Shown here: in pieces, positions 5,706 through 16,134 of the stretch | How the letters are laid out: each line of letters begins with the position of its first letter | How positions within the stretch are numbered: the first letter of the stretch is position 1 | Assembly: GCA_965218095.1 (NCBI GenBank) | Contig: OZ244587.1 | Coordinates: 5,440,001 to 5,504,000 of the forward strand | Origin: Candidatus Poribacteria bacterium | GTDB lineage: Bacteria; Poribacteria; WGA-4E; PCPOR2b | Length of the DNA stretch: 64,000 bases | Direction: 5' to 3' | Notes under the pieces: model-generated | Databases searched by the model: none | What the model saw: the letters and a program-made list of their open reading frames with translations, nothing else | Told to the model about the DNA's origin: nothing | Program-made: the position numbers and the translations under genes

Positions 5706-6335
5706 CTATGACCAGGTGTTGCGAAACCAGACTTGTGGCAGCAGATTGAGCGTTGTTTCTTCACCCCCGCAATTGTATGCCGTAATGCGAATCAGTAAAT
5801 CTTCCGGCGAAGCCTTTGCGTACTCCACGAACACATCGAAGTATCGGTCTTCATCAAAGATGCCAATGTCTATAAGCTCAAACTCTAGTGGTTCTTTGCC
5901 GCGCTGGCGGTTTTCCTCTACAAGCTAGGCATACGGAGATTCCGACTGTGGATATTTGTAGAGCATTTTCATGTACGAATGGGTCGGCGTGCTATCCAGA
6001 TAGTAGTAATACTCTTTCACCTCCTCACCGTGATTGCCTTCGTTGTTTGTAAGGCCAAAAAGACGTCCTTTCAAAATGGCATCTCGCCCATTCCACAGCG
6101 CCAGCGAGAAGCAGAGGAATTGCAGTTCATCGCTGATTCCGGCGATTCCCTCTTCGCCCCAACGATAGGCTTTGCTGCGTGCCATATCGTGAGAAACATA
6201 TTCCCACGCGGCGCCGTGCGGACTGTAATCCTCCCGCACGGTACCCCATTGACGCTCAGTCAGATATGGCCCCCATTTCTTCCATGGGGCTTTTTGGTCT
6301 CTCACTTCTTGTAATCGTACCTTTTCTGCGTTCAT
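5706..6335 (-). pseudogene. Truncated MGH1-like/GH63 glucosidase
   Basis: [53 protein letters not shown]; in-frame TAG at 5925-5927, homology continues (LVEENRQRG...WFRNTWS) to TAG at 5706; most of the gene is missing. Confidence 0.85.
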
Positions 6336-6348
6336 AAGAAATCTTGGC

Positions 6349-7305
6349 TTAGTTTCGTAGTTCTTGCAGCAGACATTCCCATCTCTGCCGCTCGCGGTCG
6401 GGATGGACAATAGGCTTTAGTCGCTCACACCACACTTTGAGCGTGGTGTAAAATTCCAGGTCTGTTTCAACTCGCTGCAGGAGATTCGCCAACGCTTTTG
6501 TGTCTCCGACCGGAAAGTATCCCGGATAATCTTCTCCTAGCAAGCCAATCGAGCCCGATATCCGCGATGAGATGACGGGCACTGAACAAGCAATAGCCTC
6601 GCAAACGACATTAGCCCCACCTTCCATTTGCGAAGTGAGCGCGAGAAGCCGACTGCGAGCCAGGATGCGGAGCGCCTTCCAGCGTGGGAGTTCCCCTAAC
6701 CACTGGTAGCGGGGATTGGAGAATACTTCGGCATGCGCATGTATTTCCATATCTTTGGTGAGGGCGCCCCCAACATGCACCACCTGAACTCGTGAAGATG
6801 GAGGCAGCAATCGGGCTGCTATGGCGGTTCGGAATGGGTCCTTCACGGGACGCAGATGGCCCAGCACTGACACCTCAAAAACTCCCTTTTTGGGAGAAAA
6901 CGCTCCCGGCGGCGGTTTCACAGATTGATAGATTACCCACGCCTTGCCACGCAGATGCTCCGGCAGTTCCGCAATGCCTGCGGGTTGCAGCAGAATGAAA
7001 CGATCCGCCATCTCCAGAGATTCTTGAGCTGACGTAGCTGTGTGGATATCGCCGTAAAGATCCGTTCCGGTCAGCGCGAGGATAAGGGACAAGTCCGGAT
7101 ATTCACCTCGAAAGCGTGCGATGGAATTGTGGCTGCGGCGTGCGTGGAGGGCAATCATCAGATTGCATCGCTGCCCTTGATACTCCTGCGCGATAGTGAC
7201 ATGGTGACCGAGTTCTCGTAAGATGTGGCTCCACCGAAGGGCGGTCACACGATTCCCCTTGCGGGAGTATGTTGGAGCTGGGGTTATCAGACAGATTTTC
7301 ATCAT
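6349..7305 (-). CDS. senB: Selenosugar synthase (GT4-like glycosyltransferase) of selenoneine biosynthesis
   Basis: [59 protein letters not shown]; adjacent to selD and senA. Confidence 0.9.
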
Positions 7306-7319
7306 TGCTCCTTGAAACT

Positions 7320-8381
7320 TTATACAAAAACAAGGTGGTTCGAGTCAACGAGGGGCATCACATGCCCGATAATCCGCGCTTTTTCTACACCATCATTGTG
7401 TAGGGCCATCAATAGTGCCTGGCTTTGGGCTTCAGGCACAGAAACCAGGAGCCCACCACTGGTCTGGGGGTCAACAAATATTTCCGTATGCCACGAAGGT
7501 AGTGAATTTTCAAAACGCGCAAGGTCTGAAATTAACGCACGATTGGCAGCATTGACGCCTGTACTCATCCCTTTTTGGTACATTTCCAAAGCCTCGCGCA
7601 TGATCGGCACTTCGTCGGTGTAGATTTGCAAAGTGATGCCAGACCCCTTTGCCATCTCCAAGGCATGGCCAGCCAGTCCAAATCCGGTGATGTCCGTCGC
7701 CGCATGGATGTCAAAGTCAGCCATGATCTCTGCCGCTTTTTTGTTGAGCGTTGTGATAGTTTGTATACATTCCTCTAGTGCCTGATCTAATACCCAATTT
7801 TTCAGATTAGCATTAAAAATTACGCCACTGCCGATAGGCTTGGTCAAGATCAGAACATCCCCCGGTTTGGCACCGACGTTTCGCCAATATTTTTGCGGAT
7901 GCACAATTCCGGTGACTGACAGCCCGAACTTCGGTTCTTCATCATCGGTTGTATGACCGCCCGCTAGGACCGCGCCGGCTTCAGTGATTTTACTCAATGC
8001 CCCCTCAACAATTGCATGCAGGATTTCTGGCTCCAGTTTATCTGACGGAAAACCCACCAAATTTAGACAGGTTACGGGGCTGCCACCCATTGCATAGATG
8101 TCGCTGATTGAATTGGCTGCACCGATCTGACCAAACAGGTATGGGTCATCCACCGGTGGGGTGATAAAGTCGGCAGTAGTCACCAAAGCCATTTCGTCGT
8201 TCAGGCGGTAGATAGCTGCATCATCGCTGGTTTCAAATCCGACAAGCAGGTTTGGGTCATCTTTCTTCGGCAGCTTTGCCAAGAGTTCTCCCAGTCCAAC
8301 TGGACTGACCTTGGCCGCTCACCCACAGGTCTTCGCGAGGCTTGTGAGGGTATGTTTTCGTGACAGTTTATTTAAGTTCAT
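7320..8381 (-). CDS. selD: Selenophosphate synthetase (SelD/SenC), selenocysteine-containing
   Basis: ATG 8381 gives MNLNKLSRKHTLTSLAKTCG-U(TGA 8319-8321)-AAKVSP, continuing in frame into DDAAIY, DFITPPVDDPY, GGHT, TDITGFGL.GH, DPQTSGGLL. Confidence 0.93.
8292..8307 (-). promoter_or_regulatory. SECIS-like hairpin of selD
   Basis: CAGUCC-AGUU-GGACUG stem-loop beginning 11 nt after the in-frame UGA, GU in the apical loop. Confidence 0.75.
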
Positions 8382-8449
8382 CGTATTGCTCCAAAGCTTT
8401 TTTAAGAGGTGACGGTGATAGGTGACAAAGACACACCGGGGTTCGAGGC

Positions 8450-8659
8450 TCAATCCCCTATCGCCGCTTTTGCTTGCGCTACCCTGTTGGTTTCGGCTTC
8501 CTCTCTGGTCGAACCGGTAGATCGAGCGATGACGGCGCCGGGGCTCACATTGTCTACGGTACAAACATACGCATTCCCGAGTTGGTAAGACTTGATCCGG
8601 ATCGTCCATTTGCCAACGGATTCGGTTCGCGTTTGATGGTTTTTAGGGGCTTGAGCCAT
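8450..8659 (-). CDS. Small hypothetical protein (69 aa) in the sen cluster
   Basis: AAGGAGGT RBS before ATG; protein-like sequence SYQLGNAYVCTVDNVSPGAVIAR...TREEAE. Confidence 0.7.
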   Translation of the reverse strand: MAQAPKNHQTRTESVGKWTIRIKSYQLGNAYVCTVDNVSPGAVIARSTGSTREEAETNRVAQAKAAIGD

Positions 8660-8909
8660 GTCGTACCTCCTTCAGGGGATTCTTTTTGTCTAAAAACGAA
8701 AGGAGTTGAAATTCTTGGTTTTCCTCAGTTGTCAACGTAGCAGTATCGTAACGAATTCCGTTTTTGCTCAATTCATCAAGAATCGTCTGTAGCACAATGT
8801 AGACGCCTTCACGGACAAAAGTAGCATCGCAGTGATACTTTCTCATTAATCGAAAGATTTCTTTCCAGGCAGCTTGTTTGTCGCTTAGAATGCGCATCGC
8901 ATGGGACAT
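8643..8909 (-). CDS. Small hypothetical protein (88 aa)
   Basis: GAGGA RBS, co-oriented between senA and the 69-aa ORF, overlapping the latter. Confidence 0.5.
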   Translation of the reverse strand: MSHAMRILSDKQAAWKEIFRLMRKYHCDATFVREGVYIVLQTILDELSKNGIRYDTATLTTEENQEFQLLSFLDKKNPLKEVRHGSSP

Positions 8910-8988
8910 GTAATTCTATCCCTCTTTTTAATGCTCCCGATGGATAGACATATCCAAACCGAGCATAATCGGATCCGCCAACGACGGA

Positions 8989-10284
8989 TCAACCCAACGC
9001 ACAAGTCCGAAATCCCGCCCACACGTCCCGGCGATCTGGCGTATAAAAGTTCCGCCATGTGTTACGAAGCATACGAGCGCGGGTCGTCCAGCATCCACCT
9101 CGCAGGACTTTACGGGTTTTAAACCAGGGATCGGAATACTCTTTGTAGGGGTCAATCTCGAAGCCGGGGTAAGGGAGAAACGTGCTGCTTGTCCACTCCC
9201 ACAGGTTACCAATCATCTGTCGGCAGCCGAAGGGGCTGTCACTTTCAGGCAAGGCTCCCACATCGATACAACCCATGGTAGTCCAGTCGAGGTTAGCTCG
9301 ATCCGGATTCGGCGGTTCATCACCCCATGGAAAGTGACGCTTCCGCGAGGAGAGTCCCTGACCGTCCGAATTTGGCTCGACAGCGGCAGCAACCTCCCAC
9401 TCGGCTTCTGTTGGCAATCGGCGTCTAGCCCAACGACAGTAAGCTTCTGCCTCATGCCAGTTGACATGGATGACAGGCAGATCCGGTTCAAGCGCCCTCC
9501 ATTTGTCAAAATGCCGGCGCAGCCAGTCGCCGTTAACGTCACGTCGCCAGTAGACCGGGTGTTCCGCACTCTCCGTTTTCCGCCATTCCCATCCCTCCTG
9601 ACTCCAGAGCTCTTTTCGGCGATAGCCCGCATTGTCCACAAACCCTGCAAACTCGGATTGAGTTACGGGAGCGCGGGCAATGGCAAACGGTTCAATCTCG
9701 ATCGGATGCGCCCACTTTTCGTTGTCAAACACGAACGGTTCGTCCGATGTGGCCCCCAAAATGAACGCACCGCCAGGAATCTCTACGTCACCCAACAGCG
9801 CCCCCTCTTCGGCCTGTGAGTTGCCGCCACTGGAAAATCGCGGAGGTGGGTATGCCAGCGTCTGGCGCGTATAGGTAAACGCCTCATTGTGCATGTCTTC
9901 GTGATAGACCGTATAGCGCACAAAATAGACCTGTGCTTCGCTGGGCTCGCCCCGCTGAAGCTGCTCGATAACCCGATTGCACACTTCACGCATGTATGCC
10001 AACGTCCCTTCGCGGGAGGGCAGCGGCAAATCCCATCGCGTTGTATGGGGGATGGCAATCGAGTCCCAAAGTGCGTCGGCGTCATCACGAATCGGTTTCT
10101 GCTTGTAGACCTCCCGCAGGACCCATTTCTCCTGAAACCACGCCACATGCCCAATCTCCCAAATCAACGGGTTGATGATCGGCAGATAGGGACTCATCAG
10201 TTGTTCGTCGCTGAGATCTGCAACCAGATCGAAGGTTCGCTGACGGGCATCATGCACCCACTCAGCAAGTTCTGCGCTATCCAT
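8989..10284 (-). CDS. senA: Selenoneine synthase (EgtB-like DinB + FGE-sulfatase domains)
   Basis: INPLIWEIGHVAWFQE, HEDMHNE Fe-binding His motif, FVFDNEKWAH, RLPTEAEWE, GNLWEWT, WRNFYTPDRRD..AGFRTC; clustered with selD and senB. Confidence 0.88.
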   Translation of the reverse strand: MDSAELAEWVHDARQRTFDLVADLSDEQLMSPYLPIINPLIWEIGHVAWFQEKWVLREVYKQKPIRDDADALWDSIAIPHTTRWDLPLPSREGTLAYMREVCNRVIEQLQRGEPSEAQVYFVRYTVYHEDMHNEAFTYTRQTLAYPPPRFSSGGNSQAEEGALLGDVEIPGGAFILGATSDEPFVFDNEKWAHPIEIEPFAIARAPVTQSEFAGFVDNAGYRRKELWSQEGWEWRKTESAEHPVYWRRDVNGDWLRRHFDKWRALEPDLPVIHVNWHEAEAYCRWARRRLPTEAEWEVAAAVEPNSDGQGLSSRKRHFPWGDEPPNPDRANLDWTTMGCIDVGALPESDSPFGCRQMIGNLWEWTSSTFLPYPGFEIDPYKEYSDPWFKTRKVLRGGCWTTRARMLRNTWRNFYTPDRRDVWAGFRTCALG

Positions 10285-10433
10285 GATTCCCTCCTCATAC
10301 GTGAAACGTGAAGCGTGATTATAGCGCGGATTTGCAGAATTCGTGGATTGGCAAAAATCCGTTTATTCTGTCAATCCGTGTTCTTGTTCTCCTATTTCTT
10401 CTCTTCCCCTATCAACCGTCCCCCTGTCCCAGT

Positions 10434-11543
10434 TTAGCCCCACACCGCTCCGGCAGTTTCAACGATAACTTTCAGCTTACGCTTCTGATCTCCTACGGTG
10501 ATATGATTGCCGACGATTGAAGTCGAGAAACCACACTGCGGACTCAACGCCAACCGCTCCAGAGACACGAATTGACTTGCCTCCTTGATGCGCGCGATAA
10601 GTTCTTCCGGCGTTGCTCGGCGTGGTGTCTTCGTGGTGACCAACCCTAACACGGCGATCTTGTCATCAGGGATCTCCTTCAGCGGCTCAAACGAACCGGA
10701 GCGTTTATCGTCGTACTCAAGCAACAACCGCTGCGCATGGATGCCCTGGAAGATCGGTTTGGCAATCAGGTCATATCCGCCCTCAGTCAGCCACCGGCTG
10801 CCCTGGTTGCCGCGTCAAAGGTGAAAGCCAAACGTGACTTCTGGAAAATCGCGAATCACGGTGTTGTCCATCTCGATTCCTCGGCGCAGCCACTGATCGA
10901 GCGTCCAGCCCTGTGCCTCGTAAAAAGCCCTGGTTTTTGGATCGAGCAGCAACGGATAATGCGGTGCATCAAGTTGAATGTAAGTGGCGCCCAGGCGGGC
11001 CAGCTCGGCGACCTCCTCTCGCAAGATGTCAACCACATCCGCCAGAAAACTGTCGAGCGTGGGATAAACGGGGAGGGAGTATTCTGGTGACCAGAAGTTT
11101 GTCCACAGACTTGGGCTTGGCAGCGTGATCTTTGGTATGCGAGTCGTCCGGGCCCGCAGGTAGGTAAACTCCTCTGCTGAGAGGTGGCGCTTGCGGGTCA
11201 GTTTGCTCATAACGCCCATATTTTTAGGGCGTTCCAAGCGTCGATCTCCCACGCCCTCGTTGCCGCACCAGTCACCCCAGAGAAAGGTGTCGATGTCGTA
11301 TTCTCCGAAACCATCGACAGCTTCCGTCATCTGGCTCTGGAAGGATAACCGGCGCATTTCCCCGTCGGTGACGACTTCCAGGCCTGCTTCTTCCTGGAGC
11401 GCGATGGCTTTGTCAACCGCTTGGTCCTCGATTGCTTTGAACGCTGCTTGCGTCATACGGACCGTGGCTACATCCTCTCTCGCCTTGAGCAACTCGGGTG
11501 GACGGAGCAAACTTCCAACGACATCAGCATGTGTGTGAATCAT
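10434..11543 (-). CDS. Cobalamin-independent methionine synthase-like protein (single-barrel MetE/YxjH type) with probable selenocysteine
   Basis: ORFs 10815..11609 and 10434..10727 share a frame and are joined by one TGA in FGFHL-U-RGNQGS (canonical HxCRGN); also ADVVGSLLRP, TDGEMRR, IQLDAP, LEYDD.RSG.FEPL, LSPQCGFS; 369 aa if read through. Confidence 0.85.
10784..10805 (-). promoter_or_regulatory. SECIS-like hairpin downstream of the MetE-like UGA
   Basis: CAG-GG-CAGCC-GGU-GGCUG-A-CUG; upper stem starts 14 nt after the UGA, GU in the loop. Confidence 0.65.
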
Positions 11544-11566
11544 GATTTTTCCCCGCAAACGGTGAA

Positions 11567-11900
11567 CTATTCTTTTTCTGCTATTAATACCACATGGTCT
11601 CCAAAGCACCTCAAGAAGGGGAACACCTTAAATAATATCCAATTGATTTTTTCTAAACGTGCCCGATCGCCTGCTAAAGCACTTAGTACGGCGACGAAGC
11701 GAAATTTCTTGATTGTCAATTTCGGGAAGAACTTCTTAATGATCGAAATATCGTTTTTGTTTAATGGTCGTTCATCCGGTGTGTCGTGGTAACTGATTTG
11801 GCGCGAGAGGTTTTTAACGTCTTTTGGAATGAAATGGGTCACGATTTTGCTGTTTCTGATTCGATTGCGTACTTCCGTTTGCATGGAATCTTTAAAAATC
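11567..11900 (-). pseudogene. AT-rich orphan C-terminal gene fragment, possibly a class I methyltransferase tail
   Basis: ...HDTPDERPLNKNDISIIKKFF...FPFLRCFGDHVVLIAEK; no credible start, upstream part is a palindromic repeat. Confidence 0.3.
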
Positions 11901-12033
11901 GCGCATCCACAATGACGCCTTTGCATCTTGTATCTTGCATGAACAACGGATTCAAGATACAAGATGCAGGTATAGAAAGTGTAGTCTATACCATCTTGCG
12001 GTATATTTTGGGGACGCTCGCAGCTCTGATCGA

Positions 12034-13572
12034 TCACTCCGTTTTCAATCGAAGGCCTTTTGACACCAGTCCTCGCTCGGCGATCTCGAAAAGCCCCTGT
12101 ACCAATAGGGCAAGCCCCGCGGCTGGCACTGCGCCTTGCAGGATTAACCCAATATTGTCCAGGCGGATACCCGTGAGAATTGGCTGCCCATAGCCGCCCG
12201 CCCCGATCAGTGCCCCAAGCGTGGCAGTCCCGACGTTGATAACCGCCGATGTCTTGATGCCAGCCAGAATAGACCGTGCTGCCATCGGCAACTCCACCAA
12301 ACAGAGGCGCGCCCGCGGTGGCAGCCCTAGTGCTTCCGCAGATTCGCGTATCTGCACCGGGATGTCATGGAGCCCTGCGTAGGTGTTTCGCACGATCGGC
12401 AGCAGGCTGTAGAGGAACAGCGCGACAACCGCAGGCGGGCCGCCGATGCCCAAGAGTGGAATCATGAAAACGAGTAAGGCTAAAGAGGGGATCGTCTGGA
12501 TGATCCCCACTATTCCTAGGATGAATTGCCCAATCTGCGGGATTTTCGTTGCTAAAATGCCAAGCGGAATGGAGAGGACGATCGCCCCAAGTAGCGAAAT
12601 TGCTACTAAGAGAAGGTGTTCCTTTGTGTGCTTCACGAAACGGCTGACCATGTTTCCCTCCTGCTGCATCCTGGTCGTTAAGTTGAGGCTTGCCTCCCAG
12701 CGGTAGTCGAAGAGATCGTTTATCATTTCGATAAATTCAGATACCACAAGACTTTCCGGTTCCCGATCCAGCTTCACGCGTGCGTTCATCCGCACCATTT
12801 CTGCCTCGGAGATGCGCCCCTCTAGCTTCAACAGAGATAACACCACCTCCGGCGCCCGCTTCTGTAGGTCATCCCGGTAGAGCAGCAATGCTTTATAGGT
12901 AGGAAAGTGGTGCAGATCATCCTCCAGTCCTCGTAGGTTATAGTACTGGATTTCTGCATCAGTCGAGTACAGATCGATAGCGTGGATGGTACCGTCCTCC
13001 AGACCGCGGTAGGCGAGGTCGTGATCCATACCTCTCACATCGCGGTGTGGCAGGCTGTATCGGTCGCGCAGGCTTGGCCAGCCGTCTCCGCGGTCCATGA
13101 ACTCGTTTGAAAAACCGAGCTTCAAATCTGGGTGATTGCGCAGATCTGAGATTGTCCGAACCCCCAGTTTTTCGGCAATCTCTTCCTTCATTCCAATGAC
13201 GTAGGTGTTATTGAAACCCAAAGGAAGACTCACACGGATATCCCGATTAGCCAACGCCTTTAGGATTTCTTCCTCACTGCGTATTCCACTACCAGCCAAG
13301 ATTTCTCCACTAATTGTACCGGTGTATTCTGGATAGACATCAATTTCGCCTCCCAGCAAGGCATTCCAGAGCACCCGAGTCCCGCCGAGTTCTCGACGGT
13401 GGACGACATCAGCGCCGGCGCTTCGTGCTAAATAAGTAATCAATTCTCCCAAGATGACTGACTCGGTGAACTTTTTTGAACCGACCTTCACCTCCGGGAC
13501 ATCGCCGTTCACCGGCGGAATTAGCGCCCAGCATATCGCTGTGAGAAACAGAGTTAGCCAAAATTGCTTCAC
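12034..13572 (-). CDS. Betaine/proline-type ABC transporter, fused substrate-binding (N-term) + permease (C-term)
   Basis: VGSKKFTE, G.IDVYPEYTGT, LGFNNTY, YSTDAEI; permease QTIPSLALL, LYSLLPIVRNTY, GAGGYG. Confidence 0.92.
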   Translation of the reverse strand: MKQFWLTLFLTAICWALIPPVNGDVPEVKVGSKKFTESVILGELITYLARSAGADVVHRRELGGTRVLWNALLGGEIDVYPEYTGTISGEILAGSGIRSEEEILKALANRDIRVSLPLGFNNTYVIGMKEEIAEKLGVRTISDLRNHPDLKLGFSNEFMDRGDGWPSLRDRYSLPHRDVRGMDHDLAYRGLEDGTIHAIDLYSTDAEIQYYNLRGLEDDLHHFPTYKALLLYRDDLQKRAPEVVLSLLKLEGRISEAEMVRMNARVKLDREPESLVVSEFIEMINDLFDYRWEASLNLTTRMQQEGNMVSRFVKHTKEHLLLVAISLLGAIVLSIPLGILATKIPQIGQFILGIVGIIQTIPSLALLVFMIPLLGIGGPPAVVALFLYSLLPIVRNTYAGLHDIPVQIRESAEALGLPPRARLCLVELPMAARSILAGIKTSAVINVGTATLGALIGAGGYGQPILTGIRLDNIGLILQGAVPAAGLALLVQGLFEIAERGLVSKGLRLKTE

Positions 13573-14348
13573 GAGGAGCCTCCTTCTAACGCTTCCAGCG
13601 GACTGCGCTGGGCATTGATAAAACTGGTTACGAAGGGATCAGCAGGCGAGCGCACCAACGCTTCCAGCGTACCTTCCTGCACGATGTATCCATCACGCAG
13701 CAGCAAGATCTCGTCGCCGACGAAACCCGCCTCACCGATGTCATGCGTCACCATGACCACCGTCTTGCCGAGCGTCTGGAAGATTCCTCGGAGATCGGTC
13801 TGTAGTCCGGCGCGGATTATCGGATCCAACGCCCCCAACGGTTCATCCATCAGCAGCACATCCGGATCTAGCATAAGCGCACGCATCAAGCTTACACGCT
13901 GCTGCTGCCCACCAGAAAGTTGCGCCGGGTAACGCCCTAAGCCATCGTTCGGGAAGTGGGTCAGATCAGTAAGCTCGGTCAAACGCCCCTCAATCCGATT
14001 TTCGTCCCATTCGAGATAACGTGCCATGAGCGCAACGTTGTCTCGTGCTGTAAGGTGTGGAAAAAGCCCGCCATCCTGAATCACGTAGCCCATCTGATGC
14101 CGGAGATCAAGAACATTGTCAGGCGTCAGCTCCGTTCCTTCAAAGCGGACAGTGCCTGTATCTGGTTGGATAAGACCAATCATCAACCGCAGCAGGGTTG
14201 ACTTACCACAGCCGCTCGGGCCAATCAGCACCGTTGTTTTGCCAGACACAACGGCCAGATTCATTCGCTGAACCGCCTGTGTCTGGCCAAAGGTTTTCGA
14301 GACGCCGTTTAATTCGAGTATGTAGTTATGTTCCATGGCAACCCTCAA
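13569..14348 (-). CDS. ABC transporter ATP-binding subunit (OpuA/ProV-like)
   Basis: GPSGCGKS, GYVIQDGGLFPH, LSGGQQQRV, LLMDEPLGALDP, VTHD. Confidence 0.93.
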   Translation of the reverse strand: MRVAMEHNYILELNGVSKTFGQTQAVQRMNLAVVSGKTTVLIGPSGCGKSTLLRLMIGLIQPDTGTVRFEGTELTPDNVLDLRHQMGYVIQDGGLFPHLTARDNVALMARYLEWDENRIEGRLTELTDLTHFPNDGLGRYPAQLSGGQQQRVSLMRALMLDPDVLLMDEPLGALDPIIRAGLQTDLRGIFQTLGKTVVMVTHDIGEAGFVGDEILLLRDGYIVQEGTLEALVRSPADPFVTSFINAQRSPLEALEGGSS

Positions 14349-15349
14349 ATTGGGGTAAGCAGATTTAAAGAAAAGTAACCCCGATCATCCTGCCAGCTTT
14401 GAGCCAGGTGAAATCGAGTCTGGGAACACATCTCGATGATCTGTGCTTTGTTGTATTTGTATGAATTCTCCGTATGGATGGTCTCACCCTGTCTAAACTG
14501 GAATGTCTTATTGAGTTGACCGATATGTACCTCCTGCTCTTTTTCGCTGCGCAAGTGCATTTCTATGCGGTTTTTCTCTGCACTATAGAAAGCGAAATGA
14601 GAGAAATTCTTCACATTAAGATCACCGCCAAGCTCATGATTGATACGCCGGAGTAGATTCATATTAAACGCTGCAGTGACCTGCTGCGAATCGTCGTAAG
14701 CCGCTTCGAGGATCGGCACATCCTTCTGCATATCCGTACCGAGCAAGAAGTAATCATTACGATTCATCCCCCGGCGGATCTTACACAAAAAATCTGAGGC
14801 TTCATCGAGTTCAAAATTACCAATATTCGAACCGAGGAAAACAACCATCTTTTGCTCAAAATCTTCTTCAGCGATTCTCTGGATTCCCGCATTGTATTCG
14901 GCGACATGTGCAGTGATTCTCAGTTCAGGAAATGTCTTGAGAAGATGTTTGGCGCTTTGCACAAGCATTGATTCGGAAATATCAATTGAAAGATAGTGAA
15001 GGGCACCCTGTCGCGTAATGAGGGCTTCGATGAGCAAACCGGTCTTGCGGGAGTTCCCGCTTCCCAACTCGATGACCGACATGTTCCCTTCGGAATACCT
15101 TGCAATTTGCGGTGCGAAGCGTTGGAGGATTGAGCGCTCGGTGCGGGTGACGTAATATTCAGGCAGATTGCAAATGTCTTCAAATAACTTTGAACCGGTT
15201 TCATCGTAAAAATATCTGGGTGACAACCGTTTGGGCTGTGTGGAAAGTCCCTCAAGCACATCTTCAGCAAAATGAGACGTTGCATTGGCAGAGGAATTTA
15301 CCTTGACTGTCAGACGTACATTTAAGGATAAATCGCCGGATTGGGACAC
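14345..15349 (-). CDS. egtD: L-histidine N-alpha-trimethyltransferase (hercynine synthase)
   Basis: PK.LSPRYFYDETGSKLFE.IC.LPEYYVTRTE, ELGSG, FLGSNIGN, AAYDD...VTAAFN, IHTENSYKY; GTG start. Confidence 0.93.
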   Translation of the reverse strand: MSQSGDLSLNVRLTVKVNSSANATSHFAEDVLEGLSTQPKRLSPRYFYDETGSKLFEDICNLPEYYVTRTERSILQRFAPQIARYSEGNMSVIELGSGNSRKTGLLIEALITRQGALHYLSIDISESMLVQSAKHLLKTFPELRITAHVAEYNAGIQRIAEEDFEQKMVVFLGSNIGNFELDEASDFLCKIRRGMNRNDYFLLGTDMQKDVPILEAAYDDSQQVTAAFNMNLLRRINHELGGDLNVKNFSHFAFYSAEKNRIEMHLRSEKEQEVHIGQLNKTFQFRQGETIHTENSYKYNKAQIIEMCSQTRFHLAQSWQDDRGYFSLNLLTPI

Positions 15350-15406
15350 TGCAGAAACCTTTCTAACTGTTGTACAAAATCCAATGATTCACTTATTCCC
15401 ACTTAA

Positions 15407-15526
15407 GAGCTTATCCGGAAAGTCAGTCTTCACTTTTTTCGTTCCTGTTGGTCCCCGGATCGGGGGCTCGAACTCTCGCGCATTCTTATCTATCGGGGCC
15501 ACGCCAGGTATTTTCCGGATGGCCTC
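15407..15526. mobile_element. MITE-like element with IS5-family-like ends
   Basis: Terminal inverted repeats GAGCTTATCCGGAAA / TTTCCGGATGGCCTC (12/15), flanked by TAA on both sides. Confidence 0.55.
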
Positions 15527-16134
15527 TAAGCCTGAATTTCCGTTAATTCACATACTTTTTCACTCAGTCGTAATCTACCCATGAATAACTTCCGTGGGGA
15601 CTAGTACGGAGATTTCAGCTTAATCTTGGGATGGTTCAGAAATCGGTTATAACACGTTCAAACCGCAACAAAATGCGAGATCTCATCCTTGAGGTCGAGA
15701 GTTAATGAGAAGCAGCAAATAGAGTGAAAGGTGGTAACTTGGGTTTATATAATAGCATGGATTTGGAAAAATACAACCAAAATTTCAAATTTCATCCTGC
15801 GAACGTCATCAATTCAATCGTTGCCGATGTCATCCGATTATCGTATACAGGGTGAGTGGAGTGGTGATTTCGGGTCACTTACGACTCCACCACTCACCAA
15901 TTGAGAACATACTTCAACAATGACTATCATGTTGACTAAGACCTATGGAAATATCCCGGGATGCGTACTAGGTTCTGTTGACATTTCGCTGTCGCGAATT
16001 CGGCAAACGCTGTAATCATCGTGCGACCCGCCAAAAACCAAGACGGTTGTCCGAAATCGCCTCAAGGTGCATCAGGTCGAAGACTCTTGGAACGGAGATT
16101 GGTTCAATCCGTCAAATGTCAACAGAACCTAGAT

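Follow-up and report, generated by a model that had tools for sequence, protein, structure and literature searches.

A stretch of 64,000 nucleotides (nt) of Candidatus Poribacteria DNA (assembly GCA_965218095.1, contig OZ244587.1, positions 5,440,001 to 5,504,000; hereafter the window) carries on its minus strand a gene for a short relative of MetE (cobalamin-independent methionine synthase) that is interrupted by an in-frame TGA. Comparison with related sequences makes it highly probable that this is a real UGA-encoded selenoprotein, with selenocysteine (Sec) at the zinc-ligand position equivalent to Cys643 of E. coli MetE. It very probably belongs, as a Sec variant, to the "methionine synthase II" family, which is widespread and uncharacterised. 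An original prediction, made from the letters of the window, had proposed such a selenoprotein together with a role in methyl or selenium metabolism; strong comparative evidence was found for a real Sec at the zinc-ligand Cys of the HxC motif, while the functional part stays inferential. The gene and its TGA are located as follows:

10434..11543, minus strand: coding sequence of the putative short MetE-like (Meth_synt_2) selenoprotein, 369 residues, from ATG 11543-11541 to TAA 10436-10434; homologues share its MIxxHAD N-terminus.
10815..10817, minus strand: in-frame TGA, read as Sec at residue 243 (U243) and aligned with the zinc ligand Cys643 of E. coli MetE.

Re-reading of the minus strand agreed with the claim that the TGA is the sole lesion of a full-length 369-residue frame and falls on the Cys of HxCRGN. 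Indeed, exactly one internal stop was found, at 10817-10815 (residue 243), within the motif FGFHL-U-RGNQGSRWL. Residues 8-342 matched the Pfam family PF01717 (Meth_synt_2, the catalytic domain of cobalamin-independent methionine synthase) with 57.1 bits against a cut-off of 21, and the SPQCGF motif is present, with Cys337 at 10535-10533. The NCBIfam models for short methionine synthases stayed below their cut-offs (PRK06520, 228.6 vs. 313; PRK06233, 215.1 vs. 576), as did the full-length MetE model TIGR01371 (36.2 bits vs. 929.95), of which only the C-terminal half of MetE was matched; the folate-binding half of MetE is missing. The expectation that annotation pipelines would split the gene was borne out by the list of open reading frames (ORFs), which breaks it into two pieces, 10815-11609 and 10434-10727.

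The TGA is conserved well beyond the window. In a six-frame search of 61 genomes (the own genome and 60 relatives), orthologues with 79-84% identity were found in 22 other genomes of the same bacterial family, in three other genera, each of them with an internal TGA, together with paralogues at 29-39% identity that contain none. The TGA occupies the identical column (HL*RGN) in 23/23 orthologues, the own genome included, whose median number of synonymous substitutions per site (dS) is 0.6-0.7. A locus scan with one genome per species, run with two patterns of which one was FHLCRGNQ, yielded 575 confirmed stretches, the best 80 of which were kept. The motif was absent from one of the 80 fetched loci (L100), and the other 79, plus the window's own gene, gave 80 rows. 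The codon at the motif column is TGA in 35 of these rows and TGC or TGT in 45, a ratio that is no census because Cys forms are favoured by the FHLCRGNQ pattern and the 575 stretches were cut down to the best 80. By record title, the TGA loci belong to Candidatus Poribacteria (16), Acidobacteriota (6) and Methylomirabilota/NC10 (5), with single loci titled Anaerolineales, Nitrospinaceae, Cytophagia, Latescibacterota, Tectomicrobia, Gammaproteobacteria (nearly identical to one NC10 locus) and "uncultured bacterium". The 16 Poribacteria loci probably overlap the genomes of the six-frame search and are not independent of them; the remaining 18 TGA loci lie outside Poribacteria. Since the same column recurs in all 23 orthologues and in 35 of the 80 rows, the TGA is no chance lesion. 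The search for homologues with TGA at the Cys column, which the original prediction had put forward as a check, was thus successful in the 23 orthologues and in 18 loci from other phyla, and close homologues are not uniformly of the TGY type.

Cysteine is the usual residue at this position in the wider family. It was found at the Sec column in 19/19 sampled full-length database homologues (75-80% identity), the database holding thousands of full-length homologues. The Cys forms fetched as loci show 67-77% identity over the best segment (68-80% in the tool's whole list), and TGA and Cys forms are 67-84% identical by the same measure. Both forms interleave on the tree, which involves at least 8 Sec/Cys changes, at least 3 of them on well-supported branches; the tree is midpoint-rooted, with 33 of its 77 inner branches unresolved, and no direction of change is claimed.

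The sequence beyond the TGA is under the same constraint as the sequence before it. The median ratio of nonsynonymous to synonymous substitution rates (dN/dS) over 231 pairs is 0.100 for the 200 codons upstream and 0.098 for the 126 codons downstream, and the frame after the TGA is open in all 23 orthologues (126 codons in 22 of them, 132 in one). A separate C-terminal ORF would start 29 codons past the TGA, leaving the invariant RGNQGSRWL untranslated. A split gene was rejected on these two grounds, the downstream dN/dS and the position of RGNQGSRWL outside any C-terminal ORF. A reassigned code with TGA as a sense codon was also rejected: TGA is the commonest ordinary stop of the own genome, ending 536 of 1373 long ORFs, and therefore the code is not reassigned.

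The machinery for Sec insertion is present in the own genome, which contains selA (605.7 bits), selB (353.7 bits), a 94-nt tRNA-Sec adjoining selB, and a single selD over the cut-off that itself carries a TGA. This co-occurrence, which had also been put forward as a check, extends to other lineages. In a survey of 50 genomes (18 TGA-form and 32 Cys-form, with the Cys-form loci L115-L117 and L120-L128 left out), selA exceeded its cut-off in 15/18 other TGA-form genomes. It did so as well in 21/32 Cys-form genomes, and therefore the use of Sec in the short MetE-like family is optional. The criteria for bacterial selenoproteins include a Cys at the aligned position of homologues and a stem-loop immediately 3' of the UGA (PMC9312934); a conserved TGA column, Cys homologues, a 3' stem-loop, Sec machinery and downstream constraint were all found here. 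Judging from the conserved TGA, the Cys homologues, the downstream selection and the Sec machinery, Sec is very probably inserted at this codon.

The TGA is also unchanged in other sequence data. Contigs from an independent DNA run and from three sponge metatranscriptome libraries (one study) carry TGA and no other letter at this position, so that TGC or TGT, which would have spoken against the original prediction, was not encountered; gene parts without RNA-contig cover were taken as evidence of nothing. In the independent DNA run (X3), the contigs break into several short pieces over 10770-10830, the region of the TGA and the hairpin described below, with a summed depth of 89.5 vs. 17-21, as expected if several strains share an invariant segment.

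A hairpin resembling a selenocysteine insertion sequence (SECIS) follows the TGA:

10785..10803, minus strand: SECIS-like hairpin, with a 5-bp stem CAGCC/GGCUG (10800-10796/10792-10788), a GGU loop (10795-10793) and lower pairs 10803-10802/10786-10785.

The stem begins 14 nt and the loop 19 nt past the TGA; counting the U of UGA as 1, the stem occupies positions 18-22/26-30 and the GGU loop +23 to +25, with the pairs 15-16/32-33 lying beyond a 1x1 mismatch. SelB needs G-U in the apical loop at about this distance from the UGA, and in the hairpin of the window's selD the loop, AGUU, lies similarly far from its TGA, at +21 to +24. All 7 pairs were kept when 24 distinct TGA-form sequences were folded jointly with RNAalifold, which also revealed one clear case of a change on both sides of a pair, G18-C30 in a Cytophagia locus (L109), produced by two synonymous substitutions. 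The loop distinguishes both forms of the gene. It reads GGU in 34/35 TGA forms vs. 12/45 Cys forms (22/23 vs. 11/42 when distinct 30-mers are counted), as the loop Arg codon is CGG or AGG, either of which gives the GGU loop, in 34/35 TGA forms, while CGC dominates the Cys forms. All five stem pairs are intact in 32/35 TGA forms and also in 27/45 Cys forms, because the conserved peptide GSRWL dictates the stem; on this comparison, the Cys forms carry a near-complete putative proto-SECIS. The original prediction had placed a GU-loop hairpin like the selD SECIS at 10784-10805. The hairpin does lie inside this interval, at a similar loop distance, whereas its stem is not specific to Sec forms and its folding energy is ordinary; likewise, the covariation that had been called for amounts to one both-sides change among 7 pairs, with the five-pair stem common in Cys forms. 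A scan of 8200-10900 against Rfam (E ≤ 10) gave no SECIS match, a result that is uninformative since the scan also missed the selD hairpin located there.

Several observations weigh against reading this gene as a selenoprotein or limit the evidence for it. Only the loop G tells TGA forms from Cys forms in the aligned hairpin, the stem not being Sec-specific, and the contrast in loop G (Fisher p = 2.4e-11) is not corrected for kinship; when loop G was tested against Sec on independent pairs, only 3 of the pairs were well supported, too few for the test to become significant. The folding energy of the 60 nt past the TGA is not unusual (z = -0.83; 36/200 shuffles fold as well or better), and the hairpin was judged by comparison for this reason. 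selA was not found in 3/18 TGA-form genomes (assemblies of 1.3-3.6 Mb, of unstated completeness). The contigs from RNA libraries, all of one study, have a depth of only 2.5-4.9, and DNA may be present among them. Moreover, the own genome has a canonical 75-nt tRNA with anticodon UCA (C1 4577829-4577903, complement; locus L146, 1501-1575), within a Leu-Lys-X-Pro-His-Arg array in which 15/15 relatives examined have a tRNA-Arg(UCG) at the same place, and from which it differs at three places in the anticodon arm. This orthologue of tRNA-Arg might read UGA; it may be either a UGA-reading Arg tRNA or a decaying gene. Finally, one Poribacteria relative (L025/L055) has a second in-frame TGA in place of the conserved Arg130, its tRNA-Arg(UCG) being normal. 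This second TGA (codon 130) may be due to a nonsense mutation, an assembly error or some other cause, and the relative's copy may be broken.

The splitting of the gene by gene callers, the UCA tRNA derived from tRNA-Arg(UCG) and the second TGA in one relative are what speaks for the alternative that there is no selenoprotein at all, either because the TGA stops translation in a pseudogene or split gene, or because another tRNA reads it as Arg, Cys or Trp. Against this alternative stand the 23/23 conservation of the TGA at a dS of 0.6-0.7 with a downstream dN/dS of 0.098, and the loss of the invariant RGNQGSRWL that translation from 29 codons past the TGA would entail. The UCA tRNA occurs in the own genome only, and the 15 relatives examined have UCG yet keep the TGA. 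Together with the ordinary use of TGA as a stop in 536 of 1373 long ORFs and the presence of the Sec machinery, these data make the alternative highly improbable.

As a selenoprotein, the enzyme would carry Sec in a metal site. A profile of the family was aligned by hhalign with E. coli MetE (probability 97.6%, MetE residues 429-731 of 753). [quoted passage not shown] (2021, PMC7857596). The counterparts in the window protein are:

10821..10823, minus strand: His241, paired with zinc ligand H641; invariant in 20/20 rows.
10815..10817, minus strand: U243, paired with zinc ligand C643.
10533..10535, minus strand: Cys337 of SPQCGF, paired with zinc ligand C726; invariant in the 20-row alignment.
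10716..10718, minus strand: Glu276, probable counterpart of zinc ligand Glu665 by our own assignment; invariant in the 20-row alignment.
S11, E62 and D192: paired by hhalign with the homocysteine-binding residues S433, E484 and D599, respectively; each invariant in the 20-row alignment.

The pairing of H241/U243/C337 with H641/C643/C726 is in line with the earlier identification of the His/Cys pair and the SPQCG Cys as the MetE zinc ligands, and this homology suggests that Sec243 would bind zinc, predicting a zinc-selenolate active site. One point weighs against this description of the zinc site: hhalign sets Glu665 opposite the variable H269 and not opposite E276. Nevertheless, E276 is the likelier match, since it is invariant, lies at the end of the strand 272-276 in the predicted model and is conserved in five paralogues of the own genome. 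The AlphaFold model (predicted local distance difference test score 84.6, predicted template modelling score 0.88) was used for fold and strand positions only, not for metal geometry. Its best structural matches were 1YPX (template modelling scores 0.74/0.84), several MetE catalytic domains and MesD (3RPD).

Comparison with known proteins places the gene close to a well-populated family. The Cys forms, annotated as "cobalamin-independent methionine synthase II family protein", have the same length and fold and share the HxCRGN, E and PQCGF motifs, with Cys where the window gene has UGA; no tested function was found for them in our searches. The nearest solved structure by sequence profile is 1YPX, a structural-genomics entry (E = 1e-61). 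Relative to E. coli MetE, the counterparts of the zinc and homocysteine residues are shared, whereas the window protein is missing the folate-binding barrel of the N-terminus and has Sec for Cys643. The core methionine synthases MesA, MesB, MesC and MesD are likewise single-domain MetE relatives with zinc and homocysteine sites, and theirs are non-folate donors according to the accessible part of PMC7857596, in which no Sec is described for them and the word "selenocysteine" is absent. The MesD structure 3RPD gave only a weak profile match (E = 3.7e-11).

In formate dehydrogenase, Sec replaces a metal-ligand Cys. This enzyme (Mo/W) and [NiFeSe] hydrogenase (Ni) resemble the window protein in having Sec for a metal-ligand Cys alongside Cys-form homologues, as the consulted section of PMC13582414 describes for Sec as a metal ligand in [NiFeSe] hydrogenase. 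However, both are oxidoreductases with redox metals, whereas zinc and alkyl transfer are predicted for the window enzyme. No paper joining "zinc ligand" with Sec was found in open-access text.

The genes around the selenoprotein gene form an array on the same strand, in the order egtD, ATP-binding cassette (ABC) ATPase, fused binding domain and permease, 156-codon ORF, selenoprotein gene, senA, two small ORFs, selD and senB:

14345..15349, minus strand: egtD (histidine N-alpha-methyltransferase), first gene of the array; TIGR03438, 374.7 bits against a cut-off of 290.9.
13569..14348, minus strand: ABC transporter ATPase, with a 4-nt overlap with the next reading frame.
12034..13572, minus strand: fused betaine-type binding domain and permease of the ABC transporter of the array.
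11567..12037, minus strand: 156-codon ORF without a family match; it shares 4 nt with the stop end of the permease frame, and its own end lies 24 nt ahead of the selenoprotein start.
8989..10284, minus strand: senA (selenoneine synthase), 150 nt downstream of the selenoprotein gene; NF041186, 526.4 bits against a cut-off of 420.
7320..8381, minus strand: selD/senC, which likewise contains an in-frame TGA (8321-8319, residue 21, motif TCGUAAK), followed by a hairpin.
6349..7305, minus strand: senB (selenosugar synthase); TIGR04348, 387 bits against a cut-off of 300.

The selenoprotein gene thus lies directly upstream of senA, as had been noticed. The window shares senA, senB and selD/senC with the sen cluster, together with a co-located egtD as in a subset of clusters, according to the available portion of the preprint by Kayrouz et al. 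(2022), in whose main text, as far as available, "MetE" and "methyltransferase" are absent. The selD of the window must serve both Sec and selenoneine synthesis because it is the only one over the cut-off in the genome. A scan of 6000-16000 for promoters and terminators gave 7 promoter-like sites vs. 8.9 expected and 7 terminator-like sites vs. 10.2 expected, and no operon boundaries were set.

Among the 18 TGA loci outside Poribacteria, senA lies directly downstream of the gene in 9 (median gap 55 nt), and egtD directly upstream in 7 of those 9. The loci titled Methylomirabilota and Tectomicrobia have egtD directly upstream and senA directly downstream, with no selD in the fetched flanks; upstream of the NC10 cassette lie housekeeping genes that are unrelated to it (aminotransferase, HAD, amidohydrolase, menaquinone synthesis, YicC, RpoZ). 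Gene order differs among the Nitrospinaceae locus, the Latescibacterota locus and the window. Recurrent co-location with senA, senB, selD or egtD in unrelated lineages, as looked for in an accessory gene of the sen cluster, was therefore found. All 16 other Poribacteria loci have a small conserved ORF, then selD and senB, downstream of the gene. Clustering of flanking ORFs gave no recurrent neighbour for Cys forms, nearly all of which lie outside sen clusters; one of them (L125, Gemmatimonadetes) sits between egtD and selD/senA, and one further Cys locus has a selD-like gene nearby. At the genome level, SenA exceeded its cut-off in 10/18 TGA-form vs. 9/32 Cys-form genomes.

On the basis of these data, the following mechanism can be proposed. 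UGA243 would be recoded to Sec by SelB and tRNA-Sec, guided by the short hairpin just downstream. Sec243, His241, Cys337 and probably Glu276 would hold the catalytic zinc, by homology, forming a zinc-selenolate centre, and, if the analogy with MetE and the core methionine synthases holds, the zinc would activate the homocysteine thiol so that it attacks a methyl group. The methyl donor would be other than folate, and homocysteine would be returned to methionine for the three S-adenosylmethionine (SAM) molecules that EgtD spends per hercynine. The conserved zinc and homocysteine sites suggest that the enzyme methylates homocysteine, like MetE and the core methionine synthases, which is a reasonable but unproven assignment; its substrate and methyl donor, and its connection with hercynine and selenoneine synthesis, are inferred. 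An accessory role in the methyl cycle seems the best reading wherever the gene is clustered with sen genes, and the tie to selenoneine is suggestive only, because many gene copies lie outside sen clusters. The chances are about even that the whole statement holds, namely a genuine selenoprotein, with homocysteine chemistry and a metabolic role beside egtD and senA. The original prediction had offered either methionine regeneration for EgtD or methylation of a selenium metabolite; the homocysteine residues are indeed conserved and egtD and senA are adjacent in several phyla, whereas the 16 other Poribacteria loci have neither gene nearby.

The metabolic role has to be set against a number of observations that count against it. 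The 10-kb flanks of those 16 Poribacteria loci yielded neither senA nor egtD; senA lies elsewhere in the genome in 10/10 genomes of genus g4 that were searched, and four genomes of the sister genus g5 have senA and no orthologue of the selenoprotein gene at E ≤ 1e-20. There is no sen gene in the vicinity of six TGA loci with full flanks, and senA (at least 59% identity) is near only 1/45 Cys loci, that of L125. Besides the selenoprotein gene, the own genome encodes MetH as split modules and a further five short MetE-like proteins. In addition, selenoneine synthesis in vitro needs only SenA, SenB, SenC and EgtD, according to the available portion of the Kayrouz et al. (2022) preprint.

Many of these observations would fit the same selenoenzyme with the same chemistry acting as a general core methionine synthase, without any role in hercynine or selenoneine metabolism, whose place by selD, senB and senA reflects a shared selenium supply in a "selenium island". 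The genome's only selD lies inside this cluster, the 16 other Poribacteria loci keep selD-senB and not senA or egtD, the 6 TGA loci lack sen genes, Cys forms (67-77% identity) are common and stand alone with no recurrent neighbour, and selA occurs in 21/32 Cys-form genomes. However, such an explanation does not account for the Methylomirabilota and Tectomicrobia loci, flanked by egtD and senA with no selD in the fetched flanks, nor for the differing gene orders in the Nitrospinaceae and Latescibacterota loci and the window, which argue for repeated selection and not for one copied cassette. The Cys form between egtD and selD/senA in L125 indicates in turn that the sen link is independent of the gene's own selenium need. 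A mere sharing of selenium supply is thus possible though doubtful. A different role, with a selenium metabolite of the pathway as the direct substrate of the enzyme, seems distinctly unlikely. It might methylate a selenol (selenoneine, the SenB selenosugar or selenohomocysteine) or draw its methyl group from a betaine such as hercynine, and Sec would adapt the zinc site to selenium chemistry. The linkage to senA, senB and selD and to a betaine-type ABC transporter is consistent with such a role, and so are the distribution of SenA (10/18 TGA-form vs. 9/32 Cys-form genomes), the gene for an MttB-family quaternary-amine methyltransferase directly upstream in an Anaerolineales locus (L083), and the tie of related UroD-superfamily methyltransferases to methyl-selenium metabolism (PMC10418091, accessible part). 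Nevertheless, the three residues for the amino-acid end of homocysteine in MetE are invariant, and TGA and Cys forms are so similar (67-84% identity) and so interleaved on the tree, with at least 8 changes, that Sec is unlikely to go with a new substrate. The genomes or locations of most family members lack sen genes, and the reconstituted selenoneine pathway, as far as the available portion of the preprint goes, needs no such reaction.

A stronger form of the preferred reading, methyl transfer to homocysteine by a selenoenzyme beside egtD and senA, can also be stated. In this form, which we regard as unlikely, the protein would be the first natural enzyme to use a zinc-selenolate centre in catalysis, and the Sec form would serve selenoneine metabolism as a dedicated accessory enzyme. 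It would feed the methyl demand of hercynine synthesis from a donor other than folate, perhaps a betaine imported through the neighbouring transporter, or would methylate a pathway selenol. If it were true, Sec decoding and the synthesis of selenometabolites, two selenium traits, would be linked in one operon.

The statement that no characterised selenoprotein family of this kind is known agrees with the searchable open-access literature, in which none was found. The accessible text of a 2026 review of the prokaryotic selenoproteome (PMC13188914), which presents families with Pfam/NCBIfam models, contains no PF01717, "methionine synthase", "homocysteine" or "MetE", and the gene would add a family not found in what is accessible of this recent catalogue. 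The accessible portions of the deep-Sep paper and of a marine trace-element paper make no mention of a MetE-like selenoprotein, none of the NCBIfam selenoprotein models matched the window gene, and a search of open-access full text gave nothing relevant on selenoproteins with methionine synthase, MetE, Poribacteria or zinc ligand. Enrichment of selA and selB in sponge symbionts has been reported in a 2017 sponge-metagenome paper (PMC5649159, accessible part).

Sec at the zinc-ligand position of an alkyl-transfer enzyme would provide a natural Sec/Cys pair in which to ask how the softness of the ligand tunes the reactivity of zinc thiolates, or protects the oxidation-sensitive site of MetE. In the genomes of sponge symbionts, NC10 bacteria, Acidobacteriota and others, annotation pipelines would render the gene as split or truncated. 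The repeated place of the gene by egtD, senA and selD is a lead both to an accessory step of selenoneine metabolism and to the methyl donor of the large "methionine synthase II" family, and the proto-SECIS in Cys forms suggests a coding sequence pre-adapted for repeated Cys-to-Sec switches.

Some further observations were made on the neighbouring genes and paralogues. The ABC transporter pair (12034-14348) occupies part of the stretch from egtD to the selenoprotein gene, its reading frames overlapping by 4 nt, and the same pair follows senA in the NC10 and Tectomicrobia loci. Its architecture presumably resembles that of the ergothioneine importer EgtUV, and its substrate might be hercynine, ergothioneine or selenoneine. 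A 69-codon ORF without a family match (8450-8659, minus strand) is kept upstream of selD in 16/16 other Poribacteria loci (tblastn, 66-86% identity). In a further locus (L069), methionine-salvage genes (ARD, HAD) lie upstream of the gene, and in the Anaerolineales locus (L083, 4517-13555) the TGA form belongs to a small island between two transposase genes, where it follows genes for a homocysteine S-methyltransferase, a GNAT acetyltransferase, a SAM methyltransferase and the MttB-family methyltransferase. The own genome has no full-length MetE, and its MetH domains are encoded as separate genes (C1 6266870-6280094 and 2481868-2482722). Its five short MetE-like paralogues (L014-L018) are all Cys forms with HxC, E and C intact, an unusually large set of genes resembling core homocysteine methyltransferases.

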